From: Escherichia coli
Lineage (GTDB): Bacteria > Pseudomonadota > Gammaproteobacteria > Enterobacterales > Enterobacteriaceae
Assembly (NCBI RefSeq): GCF_001677475.2
Contig: NZ_CP015229.1
DNA length: 64,000 nt
Strand: one strand, 5' to 3'
The stretch's first letter is position 1; the number at the start of each line of letters is the position of its first letter. This document shows, piece after piece, positions 39,364 through 45,437 of this stretch. The notes beneath the pieces are model-generated. The model did no database searches. It had not been told where the DNA came from and saw only the letters and a list, made by a program, of their open reading frames with translations. Both the position numbers and the translations under genes were made by a program.

Positions 39364-40245
39364 TTGAGCGACACGAATTACGCAGTGATTTACGACCTGC
39401 ACAGCCATACCACAGTTTCCGATGGCTGCCTGACGCCAGAAGCATTGGTGCACCGTGCAGTCGAGATGCGCGTCGGCACCCTGGCGATCACCGACCATGA
39501 CACCACAGCTGCAATCGCGCCAGCAAGAGAGGAAATTTCACGTTCGGGACTGGCGCTGAATCTAATTCCCGGCGTGGAAATTTCCACGGTCTGGGAAAAT
39601 CATGAAATTCATATTGTCGGGCTGAATATTGATATTACTCATCCGCTAATGTGTGAGTTCCTCGCGCAGCAGACAGAACGGCGCAATCAGCGGGCGCAGC
39701 AAATTGCCGAAAGACTTGAAAAAGCGCAAATACCTGGGGCGCTGGAAGGCGCACAACGACTGGCGCAGGGCGGCGCAGTGACGCGCGGTCATTTTGCGCG
39801 TTTCCTTGTTGAGTGCGGCAAAGCCAGTTCAATGGCGGATGTCTTTAAAAAGTATCTGGCGCGCGGGAAAACCGGATACGTTCCGCCACAGTGGTGTACA
39901 ATAGAACAAGCTATTGATGTCATTCATCATTCTGGCGGTAAGGCGGTGCTAGCTCATCCTGGGCGGTACAATCTTAGTGCTAAATGGCTGAAAAGATTGG
40001 TTGCGCATTTTGCCGAACACCACGGCGACGCGATGGAAGTCGCGCAGTGCCAGCAATCGCCCAATGAACGCACCCAGCTGGCGACACTTGCGCGTCAGCA
40101 TCATTTATGGGCATCACAAGGATCTGATTTTCATCAGCCATGCCCGTGGATCGAACTGGGTCGTAAACTCTGGCTGCCCGCAGGCGTTGAAGGCGTCTGG
40201 CAGCTATGGGAACAGCCGCAGAACACCACAGAGAGGGAATTATGA
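39364..40245 (+). CDS. yciV: PHP-domain phosphoesterase (TrpH/YciV), 293 aa, TTG start
   Basis: Track ORF; PHP motif HSHTTVSDG ... ITDHD. Confidence 0.85.
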   Translation: MSDTNYAVIYDLHSHTTVSDGCLTPEALVHRAVEMRVGTLAITDHDTTAAIAPAREEISRSGLALNLIPGVEISTVWENHEIHIVGLNIDITHPLMCEFLAQQTERRNQRAQQIAERLEKAQIPGALEGAQRLAQGGAVTRGHFARFLVECGKASSMADVFKKYLARGKTGYVPPQWCTIEQAIDVIHHSGGKAVLAHPGRYNLSAKWLKRLVAHFAEHHGDAMEVAQCQQSPNERTQLATLARQHHLWASQGSDFHQPCPWIELGRKLWLPAGVEGVWQLWEQPQNTTEREL

Positions 40246-40862
40246 GCCAGTTTTTTTATATTCATCCTGATAACCCGCAGCAACGTCTGATCAACCAGGC
40301 GGTGGAGATCGTGCGTAAAGGCGGGGTGATTGTTTATCCAACTGATTCCGGCTATGCGCTCGGCTGTAAAATTGAAGATAAAAACGCGATGGAGCGTATT
40401 TGTCGTATTCGCCAGCTGCCGGACGGTCACAACTTTACCCTGATGTGTCGCGATCTTTCTGAACTCTCGACCTATTCATTTGTCGATAACGTTGCGTTTC
40501 GTTTAATGAAAAACAACACGCCGGGCAACTATACCTTCATCCTGAAGGGGACGAAGGAAGTGCCACGCCGTCTGTTGCAGGAAAAACGCAAAACCATCGG
40601 TATGCGTGTGCCTTCTAACCCGATTGCGCAGGCGTTGCTTGAAGCACTGGGCGAACCGATGCTTTCCACTTCGCTAATGCTGCCAGGCAGCGAATTTACC
40701 GAATCCGATCCGGAAGAAATTAAAGACCGTCTGGAAAAACAGGTAGATTTGATTATTCACGGCGGCTATCTCGGGCAGAAACCAACAACGGTTATTGATC
40801 TTACCGATGATACGCCGGTCGTGGTGCGTGAAGGCGTAGGTGATGTGAAGCCTTTCTTATAA
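40242..40862 (+). CDS. yciO: YrdC/Sua5-family dsRNA-binding protein, 206 aa
   Basis: Track ORF 40206..40862 trimmed to MSQFFYIHPDNPQQR; ATGA overlap with yciV stop. Confidence 0.85.
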   Translation: MSQFFYIHPDNPQQRLINQAVEIVRKGGVIVYPTDSGYALGCKIEDKNAMERICRIRQLPDGHNFTLMCRDLSELSTYSFVDNVAFRLMKNNTPGNYTFILKGTKEVPRRLLQEKRKTIGMRVPSNPIAQALLEALGEPMLSTSLMLPGSEFTESDPEEIKDRLEKQVDLIIHGGYLGQKPTTVIDLTDDTPVVVREGVGDVKPFL

Positions 40863-40889
40863 CAAATTGCGTTCCACGGATGGAAGATT

Positions 40890-42785
40890 ATGGCAGGGAT
40901 AGATCGCTGCATTTTGCTGTTGATAGTTGGGCTTTTTTTCTCTTCGTTGAGTTATGCGAAAAACACGGAGATCCCTTCTTATGAAGAAGGGATCTCGCTC
41001 TTTGATGTTGAAGCCACTCTGCAACCGGATGGGGTGCTCGACATCAAAGAAAATATTCATTTTCAGGCGCGAAATCAGCAGATTAAGCACGGATTTTATC
41101 GTGATTTACCACGACTCTGGATGCAGCCTGATGGGGACGCTGCACTGCTGAACTATCATATTGTTGACGTCACCCGTGATGGTATTCCTGAACCCTGGCA
41201 TCTTGACTGGCATATCGGGTTAATGAGTATTGTCGTGGGCGATAAACAACGTTTCTTGCCTCAAGGCGACTATCATTATCAAATTCATTATCAGGTTAAA
41301 AATGCTTTCCTGCGTGAGGGAGATTCAGATCTGTTAATCTGGAACGTGACGGGTAACCACTGGCCGTTTGAAATCTATAAGACCCGATTTTCACTCAAGT
41401 TCCCTGATATTGCGGGTAATCCATTTCGCGAAATCGATCTCTTTACTGGAGAAGAGGGCGACACATATCGAAATGGCCGCATCCTTGAGGACGGAAGAAT
41501 TGAATCCCGCGATCCGTTTTATCGTGAAGATTTCACGGTACTCTACCGCTGGCCTCACGCTTTACTTAGCAATGCCCCGGCTCCACAAACGACGAATATT
41601 TTCAGCCATCTTCTTTTACCCTCCACGTCATCGTTGTTAATTTGGTTTCCGTGTCTGTTCCTGGTTTGTGGATGGTTATATCTCTGGAAGCGCAGGCCGC
41701 AATTTACGCCGGTAGATGTGATTGAAACCGATGTCATTCCGCCAGATTACACGCCCGGCATGTTACGTCTCGATGCGAAGCTGGTTTACGACGATAAAGG
41801 TTTTTGTGCCGATATCGTAAATCTGATTGTGAAAGGAAAAATTCATCTGGAAGATCAGTATGATAAGAACCAGCAAATCCTGATTTGTGTTAATGAAGGC
41901 GCGACCAGAAATAATGAGGTATTACTGCCCGCAGAGCAGTTATTACTGGAAGAGTTATTTCGTAAAGGCGATAAGGTCGTTCTTACGGGGAGACGCAACA
42001 GAGTCTTACGCAGGGCATTTTTACGGATGCAGAAATTTTATCTGCCGCGTAAAAAGTCTTCGTTTTACCGGCCTGATACGTTTTTGCAATGGGGTGGACT
42101 GACAATATTGGCGGTCATTCTCTACGGTAACCTGAGTCCTGTAGGCTGGGCAGGAATGAATCTGGTGGGCGATATGTTTATTATGATCTGCTGGTTTCTT
42201 CCTTTTTTATTTTGTTCCCTTGAGCTTTTGTTTGCCCACGATGATGACAAGCCTTGCGTTAATCATGCAATCATCACTTTGTTTTTACCAATGATTTGTT
42301 CAGGCGTGGCCTTCTATTCTCTCTACATCAATGTCGGAGATGTATTCTTTTACTGGTATATGCCAGCGGGTTATTTTAGCGCTGTTTTCCTGACCGGTTA
42401 TCTCACTGGCATGGGGTATATTTTTCTGCCAAAGTTTACCCAAACAGGGCAGCAACGTTATGCCCACGGTGAAGCTATCGTTAACTATCTTGCGCGTAAA
42501 GAGGCAACAACACACAGTGGGCGGCGGCGGAAAGGGGAAACACGGAAACTGGATTACGCGTTGCTAGGTTGGGCAGTCTCGGCAAACCTTGGAAGAGAAT
42601 GGGCAGCACGTATCACGCCGTCACTCACAGCGGCTGTTCGCGCCCCGGAAATTGCCCGTAGTGGCGTTTTGTTCTCATTACAGATGCACCTGAGTCTGGG
42701 GGCCAATACCAGTTTGTTGGGGCGAAATTATTCCGGTGGTGGTGCTGGCGGCGGCGCGGGTGGCGGAGGCGGTGGTGGCTGGTAA
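40890..42785 (+). CDS. yciQ: DUF2207 membrane protein, 631 aa, with C-terminal Gly-rich tail
   Basis: Track ORF; signal/TM segments; ends GGGAGGGAGGGGGGGW. Confidence 0.85.
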   Translation: MAGIDRCILLLIVGLFFSSLSYAKNTEIPSYEEGISLFDVEATLQPDGVLDIKENIHFQARNQQIKHGFYRDLPRLWMQPDGDAALLNYHIVDVTRDGIPEPWHLDWHIGLMSIVVGDKQRFLPQGDYHYQIHYQVKNAFLREGDSDLLIWNVTGNHWPFEIYKTRFSLKFPDIAGNPFREIDLFTGEEGDTYRNGRILEDGRIESRDPFYREDFTVLYRWPHALLSNAPAPQTTNIFSHLLLPSTSSLLIWFPCLFLVCGWLYLWKRRPQFTPVDVIETDVIPPDYTPGMLRLDAKLVYDDKGFCADIVNLIVKGKIHLEDQYDKNQQILICVNEGATRNNEVLLPAEQLLLEELFRKGDKVVLTGRRNRVLRRAFLRMQKFYLPRKKSSFYRPDTFLQWGGLTILAVILYGNLSPVGWAGMNLVGDMFIMICWFLPFLFCSLELLFAHDDDKPCVNHAIITLFLPMICSGVAFYSLYINVGDVFFYWYMPAGYFSAVFLTGYLTGMGYIFLPKFTQTGQQRYAHGEAIVNYLARKEATTHSGRRRKGETRKLDYALLGWAVSANLGREWAARITPSLTAAVRAPEIARSGVLFSLQMHLSLGANTSLLGRNYSGGGAGGGAGGGGGGGW

Positions 42786-42995
42786 TTAAGCTGATGTTAA
42801 TCGAAACAAGCTTTAACCATAAAGATAGTGTAGTATGTTGCGCCTCAAAGCCAGGCCGATAAACGTCGAGGCGTTTACTTAAGGCCTGAAGAGTTCAAAC
42901 AGACTTTACTATCAGTGAGTCAGATGTAAGTTCTGACTCATTGTTGCACAAAAGCATATCAGACGCCTGGGAAGGCGACACCAAAAGGAAGCTCT

Positions 42996-43871
42996 ATGAG
43001 CGAAAAGCTACAGAAAGTGCTGGCGCGTGCCGGCCACGGTTCTCGCCGTGAAATCGAATCTATTATTGAAGCCGGTCGTGTGAGTGTTGATGGCAAAATT
43101 GCTAAACTCGGCGATCGCGTCGAAGTTACCCCTGGATTGAAAATCCGTATCGATGGTCATCTGATTTCGGTACGTGAGTCCGCTGAACAAATTTGTCGCG
43201 TTCTGGCCTATTACAAACCGGAAGGTGAGTTGTGTACCCGTAACGATCCGGAAGGGCGTCCAACGGTGTTTGACCGTCTGCCAAAGCTGCGTGGCGCACG
43301 CTGGATTGCCGTGGGTCGCTTGGACGTTAACACCTGTGGTCTGCTGCTGTTCACCACCGACGGTGAACTGGCAAACCGTTTAATGCATCCAAGCCGTGAA
43401 GTTGAACGTGAATATGCCGTGCGTGTATTTGGTCAGGTTGACGACGCGAAACTGCGTGATTTGAGTCGTGGCGTGCAGCTGGAAGATGGTCCGGCAGCCT
43501 TTAAAACCATCAAGTTCAGCGGCGGTGAAGGGATCAACCAGTGGTACAACGTGACTCTGACCGAAGGCCGTAACCGTGAAGTTCGTCGTCTGTGGGAAGC
43601 GGTTGGTGTTCAGGTGAGCCGCCTGATTCGTGTTCGTTACGGTGATATCCCTCTGCCAAAAGGTCTGCCACGCGGTGGCTGGACGGAGCTGGACCTCGCC
43701 CAGACTAACTATCTGCGCGAACTGGTGGAGCTACCGCCAGAAACCAGCTCTAAAGTCGCTGTAGAAAAAGACCGTCGTCGCATGAAGGCGAATCAGATTC
43801 GTCGTGCGGTGAAACGTCACAGTCAGGTGAGCGGCGGTCGTCGTTCTGGCGGACGTAATAATAACGGTTAA
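42996..43871 (+). CDS. rluB: 23S rRNA pseudouridine(2605) synthase, 291 aa
   Basis: Track ORF; S4 domain N-terminus, Arg/Gly-rich C-terminal tail. Confidence 0.92.
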
Positions 43872-43887
43872 TTTAAGTTAAGTATAA

Positions 43888-43912
43888 AATAAAGGCCCTG
43901 CGGGGCCTTTCC
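43888..43912 (+). terminator. Hairpin downstream of rluB (putative terminator; left edge of the AT-rich islet)
   Basis: aaaggccctgcggggccttt GC stem about 20 nt after the rluB stop; no strong T-run; approximate coordinates. Confidence 0.4.
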
Positions 43913-44040
43913 TTCATTTGAAGCATGATAAATAGTCGCAGTATTTTAATTTAATTTCATACTTGCTTATGAATAATGCCAGGAAATAGCCACATTACTA
44001 TTTAATTATCTGAGATAAACTCAACGTCAAGAGGTGGGTT

Positions 44041-45063
44041 ATGATTAGATATAGTGGAATATTTCTATCGCTGTTAATGCTTTCAGGTTGTGCAACCGAA
44101 GCATTGAAGAATGAACAAGCTGAAACTGTTATTACTGCGGGTAACAAGGCGGTTGCGGCGAATGCAAGTTTCTTTAAACAATACTATGCTTCTCGTGAAA
44201 ACTTCCTTGTTAATTTTTATGCGACTAATCCGGATTGTGCATTGCGACCTGATTATGAAACGATTATGGAAAATAATACTAATAAAGAGTCCTTATGTTT
44301 GCAATCAGAGAAAGGGGGGAAAACATCGTATAAAGATATTACTAAAATTCAATTGGCAACAACAGAAAAACAAAAACTACTGGCTTCACTTGAGGTCGTT
44401 AATAGTATGAGTTCCTATGTGGAGTTGTTGACGGTGGGTATGGATGTTGAGGATAGTAAACAAATTATATTACTTAATCAGGCGCTCGATCACGCAAACA
44501 ACGCCCAAAAACTACTTGGCGTTTCAGAAGGTGAAGAACTGACTAAGTCAGCTGTGGCTGTTAAAGATTTAGTTCAATATTTCAATGGATTATACAAAGA
44601 GAAGATTAAATCAGAAAATGTTGGTAAAACGGTAGGTAGTGACTGGCCACGACTTCAAAGAAATTTACAAGATTTACTTGATGATATAGCAACGAAACAG
44701 CAGCAAATGGATCGGAATAATTTTGCGAACATCAGTAATAATTTTTATTACTATAATAAGGCCCGGGCAAATACTAAAAATATAGAATTTAAGACGTTAA
44801 AGAACAGGCAGGAATTTTTGAGTGCAGTAATTAATCTTAATGAAAGCAGATTGCGTTCATCTGATCCGGCGGCTCCAGCAATACAAGCTATTAATGCCTT
44901 CATGGATAAAGGAAATCATCTACAAGATTTATACTCTAATAAATCTCTTTCAAAAGCGGATTTAGATCGTAGGAATGAGATCCTGCGTTCTCAAGTTATT
45001 AGTGGTCTACAGGCGTCAGAGGAGCTGGCAAAACTTCTTATTGCCAGCGGAGTTATGTTATAG
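44041..45063 (+). CDS. Hypothetical lipoprotein, 340 aa (accessory, AT-rich; not recognised)
   Basis: Track ORF; SD aagAGGTGGgtt 6 nt upstream of ATG; N-terminus MIRYSGIFLSLLMLSGC with lipobox LSGC then Ala at +2; K/N/Q/E-rich; AT-rich codons (TTA, ATA, AAT) atypical for flanking genes. Confidence 0.8.
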   Translation: MIRYSGIFLSLLMLSGCATEALKNEQAETVITAGNKAVAANASFFKQYYASRENFLVNFYATNPDCALRPDYETIMENNTNKESLCLQSEKGGKTSYKDITKIQLATTEKQKLLASLEVVNSMSSYVELLTVGMDVEDSKQIILLNQALDHANNAQKLLGVSEGEELTKSAVAVKDLVQYFNGLYKEKIKSENVGKTVGSDWPRLQRNLQDLLDDIATKQQQMDRNNFANISNNFYYYNKARANTKNIEFKTLKNRQEFLSAVINLNESRLRSSDPAAPAIQAINAFMDKGNHLQDLYSNKSLSKADLDRRNEILRSQVISGLQASEELAKLLIASGVML

Positions 45064-45072
45064 GAGGTCATT

Positions 45073-45381
45073 ATGAACGATGTGCAAAATCGACGAATAC
45101 TGGCATTGCTCAATATGCTGTACTATGCCTTAGGAAACCGAACAACCTGCGATATATGTCACAAATATTTTATTCTGGTTTTGTCGGTAATGAATAATCT
45201 GACAATTAATTATGGCTCGCAAACGTCACCAGAACTGACTGGTATTAGTTATGAAGATGCTAATGATTTGATCACTGAATTAATACTGTTTATTGAAGAC
45301 GTCAATGCGGATAATGATATGGAATATCCCGCACACTTGAATAAAATTCAAGCTCTTCTTAATTTTGCCGTGGCTAATTAA
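45073..45381 (+). CDS. Hypothetical small acidic protein, 102 aa, translationally coupled to the upstream lipoprotein gene
   Basis: Track ORF; ORF1 stop TAG sits inside SD tAGGAGGt 7 nt before the ATG; no signal peptide; CxxC at residues 26-29; acidic C-terminal half. Confidence 0.75.
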   Translation: MNDVQNRRILALLNMLYYALGNRTTCDICHKYFILVLSVMNNLTINYGSQTSPELTGISYEDANDLITELILFIEDVNADNDMEYPAHLNKIQALLNFAVAN

Positions 45382-45402
45382 GCCATTCAGTATCTAAAAT
45401 TA

Positions 45403-45431
45403 GCACCTCAAGAGGCGATCTTTTGAGGTGC
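45403..45431. terminator. Bidirectional hairpin between the islet and convergent btuR
   Basis: gcacctcaagaggcgatcttttgaggtgc (9-bp stem) about 20 nt after the ORF2 stop and just before the btuR stop; T-rich flank on the minus strand. Confidence 0.55.
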
Positions 45432-45437
45432 TTTCCC

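Follow-up and report, generated by a model that had tools for sequence, protein, structure and literature searches.

An AT-rich gene pair as a probable alternative allele of the rluB–btuR intergenic region in Escherichia

The 64,000-nucleotide stretch of Escherichia coli DNA analyzed here (RefSeq contig NZ_CP015229.1, hereafter the window) contains, between the convergent core genes rluB and btuR (also named cobO), an islet of two open reading frames, ORF1 and ORF2, with an AT-rich leader and a hairpin on either side. We propose, with a probability of about 0.7, that the whole segment 43872–45437 is an alternative intergenic allele, exchanged by homologous recombination, with a self-contained accessory operon that is AT-rich and made up of two genes; the way in which the operon would work as an insulated unit and the history of its insertion are parts of this reading that we infer. 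Within Escherichia, the allele moves, is lost and is reshuffled by homologous recombination. The layout of the locus, in window coordinates, is the following:

42996–43871, plus strand: rluB, left core flank, stop codon 43869–43871 (open reading frame list and RefSeq annotation of matching loci)
43872–45437: islet allele, 1,566 bp between the convergent rluB and btuR stop codons
43891–43910: hairpin 1, bidirectional terminator-like stem-loop
43911–44040, plus strand: leader, 130 bp, AT-rich
44041–45063, plus strand: ORF1, 340 amino acids (aa)
44222–44256: internal mosaic breakpoint, within ORF1
45073–45381, plus strand: ORF2, 102 aa
45402–45432: hairpin 2 (13 pairs; core 45403–45431), islet-specific bidirectional terminator-like stem-loop
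45438–46028, minus strand: btuR (cobO), right core flank, stop codon 45438–45440

The G+C content of the islet is 32–41%, versus 49–57% in the flanking genes, and ORF1 and ORF2 have the same orientation. A previous description of this region made from the letters alone (the sequence-only reading), which listed two hairpins, an AT-rich leader of about 130 bp and the ORFs, proved accurate throughout, all of these elements being located.

The islet stands in place of the entire spacer

In E. coli strains devoid of the islet, including K-12, rluB and btuR are separated by a 39-bp spacer (tcaaagtATGCCGGAcgtcataTCCGGCATttttacaga), which contains a single hairpin, ATGCCGGA-cgtcata-TCCGGCAT, resembling the repetitive extragenic palindromic (REP) consensus and unrelated to the islet hairpins, neither of which occurs in this spacer. 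When the islet is aligned with the empty site (alignment A1), identity ends at position 43872, 1 nt past the rluB TAA, and resumes at the btuR stop codon. Relative to K-12, each breakpoint thus falls at a stop codon: the islet allele includes both hairpins, and the whole intergenic region, terminators included, is replaced. The sequence-only reading had placed the cargo between the terminators of the two core genes; relative to K-12 this does not stand, both hairpins lying inside the polymorphic segment. For hairpin 1, the idea of a core terminator is probably valid in a deeper sense, as its motif is the sole element of the empty spacers of three other genera; hairpin 2 occurs only with the cargo (see below).

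The GCCGGA...TCCGGC palindrome is present in the empty sites L001, L002, L012, L091 and L107–L109 (our locus numbers) and absent from the islet, and the spacers of Salmonella, Citrobacter and another E. coli-like species are occupied by longer REP-shaped versions of it. A survey of the junction, in which one genome per species was scanned with BtuR, gave 80 Enterobacterales loci: rluB and btuR are convergent neighbors almost everywhere, usually 21–100 bp apart, and in most of the species surveyed the spacer consists of one bidirectional hairpin or of REP copies. The only species representative with the islet is that of E. whittamii. More broadly, the rluB/btuR junction is a general variable spot.

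Exchange of the islet through its flanks and its conserved ends

The islet is carried by 1,237 of the 5,426 complete E. coli genomes in RefSeq (~23%) and lacking from the other ~77%. Among the carriers, 780 have the full-length allele of the window, called A, and about 450 match only bases 1–384 of the query (43873–44256), with 96–99% identity. Comparison of alleles A, B and C by sliding-window identity accounts for the position of this boundary in the list above: the three are 96–100% identical to the left of 44222–44256 and 55–70% identical to its right, with a recovery at hairpin 2. Likewise, the proportion of synonymous differences (pS) in ORF1 is 0.02–0.2 over codons 1–72 and 0.64–0.75 afterwards, with a nonsynonymous divergence (dN) of ~0.3 and a dN/dS ratio (omega) of ~0.2, i.e. 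ORF1 is under purifying selection; ORF2 is saturated at synonymous sites between A and B/C, the dS between B and C being only 0.27. These patterns indicate that the allelic lineages are older than the species, are under purifying selection and comprise at least three deeply diverged mosaic versions.

The right flank bears the marks of exchange. The islet strain 536 and the empty strain CFT073 have nearly identical rluB genes; their btuR genes differ by 9 single-nucleotide polymorphisms (SNPs) in the first 100 bp and by 5 in the second, and from ~200 bp into btuR onward the difference falls to about 0 over 1.4 kb, with only 0–2 SNPs per 100 bp. Successive 100-bp btuR windows give 4, 7, 2 and then 0 SNPs for ST131 versus CFT073, and 6 SNPs and then about 0 for no107 versus K-12. 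In all, the SNP clusters that separate islet and empty strains stop within the first 100–250 bp of btuR. The last ~70 bp of btuR (45441–45507) form a haplotype linked to allele A: the A carriers (the window, 536, 317 and ST648) differ from all other E. coli examined at 8–10 of 70 sites. On this sequence evidence, the islet is shuffled via its flanks and via its own conserved ends, used as homology arms. As a way of transmission, the homologous recombination through conserved flanks put forward in the sequence-only reading is thus backed by the btuR SNP clusters and by the mosaic alleles.

All the homologues of ORF1 and ORF2 with at least 54% identity lie at the rluB/btuR junction together with both hairpins; they come from E. 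coli, E. whittamii, Citrobacter sp. ANG330 and metagenome contigs, and E. albertii is counted by its database name only. Such strict synteny, which extends to the Citrobacter-like lineage, where the divergence of the islet parallels that of the flanks, is what one would expect if the pair were ancestral to Escherichia or to an older clade, the islet being a relic and the majority empty state the product of deletion. In keeping with this, allele divergence predates the species (dS >1.4) and loss does occur, by routes other than exchange too: in L009 (3080–4860), an IS1 sits within ORF1 after about codon 56, and in E. coli Ec-U3 (L115, 2500–3360) one IS1 stands where the leader and both ORFs would be, between an intact hairpin 1 and an intact B-type hairpin 2. 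We nonetheless regard a relic as rather unlikely. The empty E. coli spacer is no scar left by deletion of the islet, and its REP-type hairpin, absent from the islet, is common to the empty sites of Salmonella and Citrobacter; 79 of the 80 species representatives lack the pair; the cargo has 32–41% G+C in a background of roughly 50–57%; and islet and empty haplotypes of the same phylogroup differ by short imported tracts.

Two terminator-like hairpins of probably different origin

Hairpin 1 (aaaggccctgcggggccttt) starts 20 nt past the rluB stop codon and has an 8-bp stem and a 4-nt loop (AAAGGCCC-TGCG-GGGCCTTT); its predicted folding energy is −16.4 kcal/mol (z = −2.3 in a 54-nt context), and a terminator scan picks it out as terminator-like on either strand. 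Hairpin 2 (gcacctcaagaggcgatcttttgaggtgc), located 22 nt past the ORF2 stop codon and 6 nt before that of btuR, has 9 perfect pairs and can be extended to 13 pairs over 45402–45432 (AGCACCTCAAGAG-gcgat-CTTTTGAGGTGCT); it folds at −20.4 kcal/mol (z = −4.6), with none of 200 shuffles folding as well. The in-silico call for hairpin 2 is on the minus strand; on the plus strand, TTTCCCTT comes directly after the stem. With a G+C-rich stem, a short loop and a 3' T run, both hairpins are predicted Rho-independent terminators. Altogether, region 43700–45600 contains five terminator-like sites, versus 1.5 ± 1.4 in shuffled sequences, and no Rfam RNA family was found in it.

Hairpin 1 is kept in every islet, including those of Citrobacter sp. 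ANG330 and of the metagenome locus L008. Its motif, AAGGCCC-N2–7-GGGCCTT, has 19 occurrences in the 782 kb scanned, all at the rluB/btuR junction: 16 are in islet copies and three in empty spacers of other genera, of which it is the sole element (Pluralibacter, L059, and two Enterobacteriaceae, L047 and L053). Only one base in 30 separates the L008 copy (ATGCAAAAAGGCCCCTCGGGGCCTTTTTT) from the Pluralibacter spacer. Hairpin 1 is therefore probably the descendant of an older terminator shared by rluB and btuR. Hairpin 2 (GCACCTC...GAGGTGC) has another distribution: every islet locus has it and the empty sites never do. It folds in each of the lineages; in that of ANG330 an A:T pair has become C:G, which preserves the stem. 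Among alleles A, B and C it is nearly identical while the adjoining ORF2 is saturated.

Were the two hairpins incidental, that is, REP-like or chance palindromes with no delimiting or insulating role, one could understand why their T tracts are weak in the window, why the minus-strand scan calls only a 5-bp core of hairpin 2 and why the z-score of hairpin 1 is modest. We consider this very improbable, as the positions of both hairpins are kept amid otherwise unalignable non-coding sequence, the stem of hairpin 2 has undergone a compensatory change and its sequence is conserved in A, B and C beside a saturated ORF2. Furthermore, both hairpins survive the IS1-mediated deletion of the whole cargo, and neither fits the REP pattern of the empty sites.

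The leader that separates hairpin 1 from ORF1 contains a candidate promoter, made of a −35-like element GTCGCA (43935–43940), a 17-nt spacer and a −10-like element CATACT (43958–43963), both hexamers being weak. In an alignment of six otherwise poorly alignable leaders (A5), TAGTCGCAG and TTCATACTTG are invariant, and the 17 nt between GTCGCA and CATACT vary in sequence with a fixed length. Invariant blocks at a fixed spacing are the pattern expected of a promoter; the earlier suggestion that the leader could carry its own promoter is plausible, with this element as the candidate. Further downstream lies the ORF1 Shine–Dalgarno sequence, AGAGGTGGG (44030–44038).

Edge repeats and the entry of the cargo

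In the window, the best in-register direct repeat between the islet edges is a 12/16 match, a value reached by 443 of 1000 shuffles and thus not significant, and no Escherichia copy has a significant edge repeat. Citrobacter sp. ANG330 (L005) has a 20-nt edge direct repeat, GC(C/A)CCGAGGGGCCTTTTTTA, with 19/20 identity (0/1000 shuffles), and the related contig L006 has one with 17/20 identity (0/1000 shuffles). The repeat copies have the following positions:

L005: 3853–3872 and 5352–5371
L006: 266–285 and 1765–1784

The sequence-only reading, in which no direct repeats were identified at the edges by eye, agrees with the result for the window; a repeat does exist in the most divergent relatives, the ANG330 lineage. 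In this lineage, the left copy corresponds to the loop, the 3' arm and the T tract of hairpin 1, and the right copy to the 3' arm and the T tract of hairpin 2, ending exactly on the btuR stop codon. Because the same bases hold different structural roles in the two hairpins, the repeat more likely reflects duplication than convergence, and the original insertion may not have been a plain flank-mediated exchange. A second candidate for the cassette boundary, an 11-nt repeat (ACGTCAAGAGG at 44024 and ACCTCAAGAGG at 45405), was discarded, since a deletion has removed the left copy from the leaders of ANG330 and L008.

The duplicated 3' half of the terminator (19/20 in L005, 17/20 in L006, 0/1000 shuffles) can be read in another way, with the islet as what is left of a mobile element, be it integrative cassette, transposon or phage-delivered moron, that inserted site-specifically at terminator hairpins with an enzyme supplied in trans. 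It would also account for the fact that a distant version of the pair occupies, as a moron, the orf30 site in a P2-like prophage and that other distant copies adjoin transposase genes. Several findings leave this reading a small chance only. Neither ORF matches Pfam, NCBIfam, PADLOC or PHROGs, and therefore no transposase or integrase is present, in agreement with the lack of mobility genes noted from the sequence. Terminal inverted repeats pairing the islet edges, which would have pointed to a transposon remnant, were looked for and not found, the only strong inverted repeats being the two local hairpins. As said above, the direct repeat does not reach significance in any of the Escherichia copies. 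No close homologue occupies a second site, nor did we detect one in 50,697 phage records, in IMG/VR or, using PLSDB, on genuine plasmids. Finally, homologous exchange explains all the variation seen inside E. coli.

Three PLSDB 'plasmid' matches to ORF1 were rejected: CP054249.1 is a heavily frameshifted chromosomal fragment that includes trpL and rluB, and CP054253.1 and NZ_CP134663.1, one of which is 4.9 Mb long, were judged chromosomal from size alone.

A predicted lipoprotein and a small helical partner

ORF1 encodes a predicted lipoprotein, with the signal peptide MIRYSGIFLSLLMLSGC and the lipobox LSGC, which fits [LVI][ASTVI][GAS]C; all of 40 family members share the lipobox cysteine (Cys17). 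The alanine at position +2 suggests, by the usual sorting rule, an outer-membrane lipoprotein. Residues Cys66, Cys86 and Tyr126 are also invariant. The protein is predicted to be all-helical, and an AlphaFold2 (AF2) model built from an 11-sequence alignment contains helices only, with a predicted local distance difference test score (pLDDT) of 44, too poor for a fold search.

The AGGAGG Shine–Dalgarno sequence of ORF2 (45062–45067) overlaps the ORF1 stop codon, and therefore ORF1 and ORF2 form one operon. The ORF2 product has no signal peptide and is predicted to be a helical bundle (AF2 pLDDT 85, predicted template modeling score 0.79), whose fold matches are generic helical bundles only. Four residues, Cys26, Cys29, His30 and His88, are invariant in homologues down to 59% identity (C-x-x-C-H, 45148–45162; His88, 45334–45336), and this Cys/His set suggests a metal site. 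A haem-c site was considered for the CxxCH motif and rejected, as the protein has no signal peptide and the motif is not preserved in the homologue of locus L092 (C-x4-C, no His).

For both proteins, the searches against Pfam, NCBIfam, PADLOC and PHROGs and the profile searches against the PDB gave no family match, and the same was true, solved structures included, of the 40-member family alignment (A4) and of the distant homologues; the PDB profile searches returned coiled-coil or zinc-finger noise only. With PADLOC-DB 2.0, ORF1, ORF2 and eight distant homologues had only chance-level matches (E ≥0.006). A literature search found no paper mentioning the RefSeq protein accessions of the pair, which is thus undescribed in the databases and literature searched; the single paper in which both gene names occur is, going by its title, a proteomics study on another subject.

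A profile search of 1.84 billion representatives yielded 59 relatives of ORF1, about 30 of them full-length lipoproteins of 325–357 aa. A 96–107-aa gene lies directly downstream in seven of the nine contexts of distant homologues; the exceptions are L095, where the downstream gene has 269 aa, and L113, whose contig is too short to tell. Profile comparison demonstrated homology to ORF2 for the L092 partner only (E = 2e-5 and 3e-6) and failed to link the small partner proteins beyond it. The L092 pair, with 35% G+C, is inserted in a P2-like prophage of 60% G+C, where it separates gpS from gpV; the gpS–gpV gap is the orf30 position, one of the three known moron sites of P2-like phages (PMC6823313, PMC3091744). 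Other distant copies adjoin transposase, VapBC, Fic or H-NS genes. ORF1 and ORF2 are thus members of a paired-gene family dispersed among bacteria.

A polymorphic toxin/immunity system was considered and rejected: the alleles are homologous over their full length (54–86% identity, 100% coverage), omega is ~0.2 and no toxin domain was found. Our working guess is an envelope-related accessory role for the ORF1/ORF2 pair.

Neighboring genes and other cargo near btuR

The window covers the trp–topA region of Escherichia, with yciQ, rluB, btuR/cobO, yciK and sohB around the islet (open reading frame list and RefSeq annotation) and no phage gene near it. Over 40000–50000, none of the 5,426 complete genomes exceeds 98.2% identity with the window, so that its lineage is not represented among them, yet its islet is the common A allele. 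One further gene is listed here:

40890–42785: yciQ, upstream of rluB

At the 3' end of yciQ (42740–42785), the YciQ protein closes with a Gly/Ala run, GGGAGGGAGGGGGGGW, and the annotated length of the coding sequence varies among strains, from 1,584 to 1,896 bp. Insertion sequences were seen at two other places of the region: IS200C between sohB and yciN in CFT073 and DA33137 (L107 6806–7264 and L106 9535–9993), and IS5 within yciQ of MS 198-1 (L109 540–1520). The btuR gene (45441–45980) is strongly mosaic among E. coli whatever the islet state; for instance, about 12 SNPs in the block 45662–45738 are common to ST648, JNE070796, DA33137 and the empty strain MS 198-1.

Cargo unrelated to the islet was found near btuR in loci L013, L034, L044–L048, L054–L057, L061, L064, L070, L077, L080 and L088. 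It lies between btuR and rluB in L034, L054, L070, L077, L080 and L088; for the remaining loci, rluB is not within the 3 kb fetched. Examples of this cargo are a pair of genes of ~666 aa and ~324 aa in Klebsiella, Kluyvera, Yokenella, Cedecea and Shimwellia, a 198-aa gene in Hafnia and Rahnella, a 94-aa lipoprotein gene in Yersinia and a gene for a 741-aa protein in Pseudocitrobacter.

Discussion

If the segment is an exchangeable allele with a self-contained operon, as we favor, its working can be pictured as follows. Transcription would start at a promoter in the 130-bp leader, and ORF1 and ORF2 would be translated as a coupled pair; hairpin 1 would insulate the operon from rluB and also stop antisense read-through, and hairpin 2 would end both the operon transcript and the convergent btuR transcript. 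As for its origin, the cargo would have been inserted once, directly 3' of the older AAGGCCC...GGGCCTT terminator common to rluB and btuR, and one lineage would have kept ~20 bp of the 3' half of this terminator duplicated at the right edge, as the 3' arm of hairpin 2.

Several points weigh against this picture. Regarding expression, the terminator activity of both hairpins is a prediction, the window T tracts on their 3' sides are interrupted (TTTCCTTCATTT and TTTCCCTTAAT), as in E. coli generally, while those of the Citrobacter-like copies are cleaner, and a consensus scan calls no promoter in the leader. Regarding history, it is a short motif that links hairpin 1 with terminators in other genera, and the resemblance could be convergence; the edge repeat, which reaches significance in the ANG330 lineage alone, could stem from gene conversion at a later date and not from the original insertion; rluB, a nearly invariant gene, shows no SNP cluster that would place the left end of a recombination tract; and each event within Escherichia may have been either a gain or a loss.

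The islet can be compared with several known systems. Chromosomal recombination hotspots or 'replacement islets', such as the O-antigen and capsule loci, hold variable cargo between core genes and exchange it by homologous recombination. Similarly, the rluB–btuR islet is fixed in position, has no mobility genes and exists as several deeply diverged alleles; recombination tracts end in the core genes that flank it, and other genera have unrelated cargo at this junction. It differs in that it has only two genes, the alternative allele is a REP-like hairpin and not a gene set, and its own leader and 3' hairpin also act as homology arms. Like the bidirectional intrinsic terminators of convergent genes, the islet hairpins are G+C-rich, have A-rich and T-rich sides and lie 6–22 nt from stop codons; unlike them, they are two, one probably inherited and one islet-specific, and their T tracts are degenerate in E. 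coli. They do not match the REP/BIME elements, whereas the empty spacers of E. coli, Salmonella and Citrobacter carry the REP-type GCCGGA...TCCGGC. Finally, phage morons are accessory genes with their own promoter and terminator, located between genes that are adjacent in related genomes (PMC6823313, PMC3091744). The islet resembles them in being AT-rich, in lying between genes adjacent in relatives and in having a promoter-like leader and a downstream hairpin, and a distant homologous pair does occupy the P2 orf30 moron site; unlike a moron, the window copy lies between chromosomal core genes and spreads by flank recombination, not with a phage. The architecture, a moron-like accessory operon acting as an intergenic-spacer allele, is thus of a known kind, whereas the gene pair itself has no description in the databases and literature searched.

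Some 23% of the complete E. coli genomes, with those of ST131, 536 and ST648 among them, express this pair, or at least maintain it under purifying selection, and its interest would rise only if a defense or envelope function were proved. The edge repeat derived from half a terminator hints at how cassettes free of mobility genes first enter convergent intergenic regions. The rluB–btuR islet offers an unusually detailed view of an ordinary process, in which a small operon is gained, lost and reshuffled by homologous recombination whose tracts end some hundreds of bases inside a core gene.

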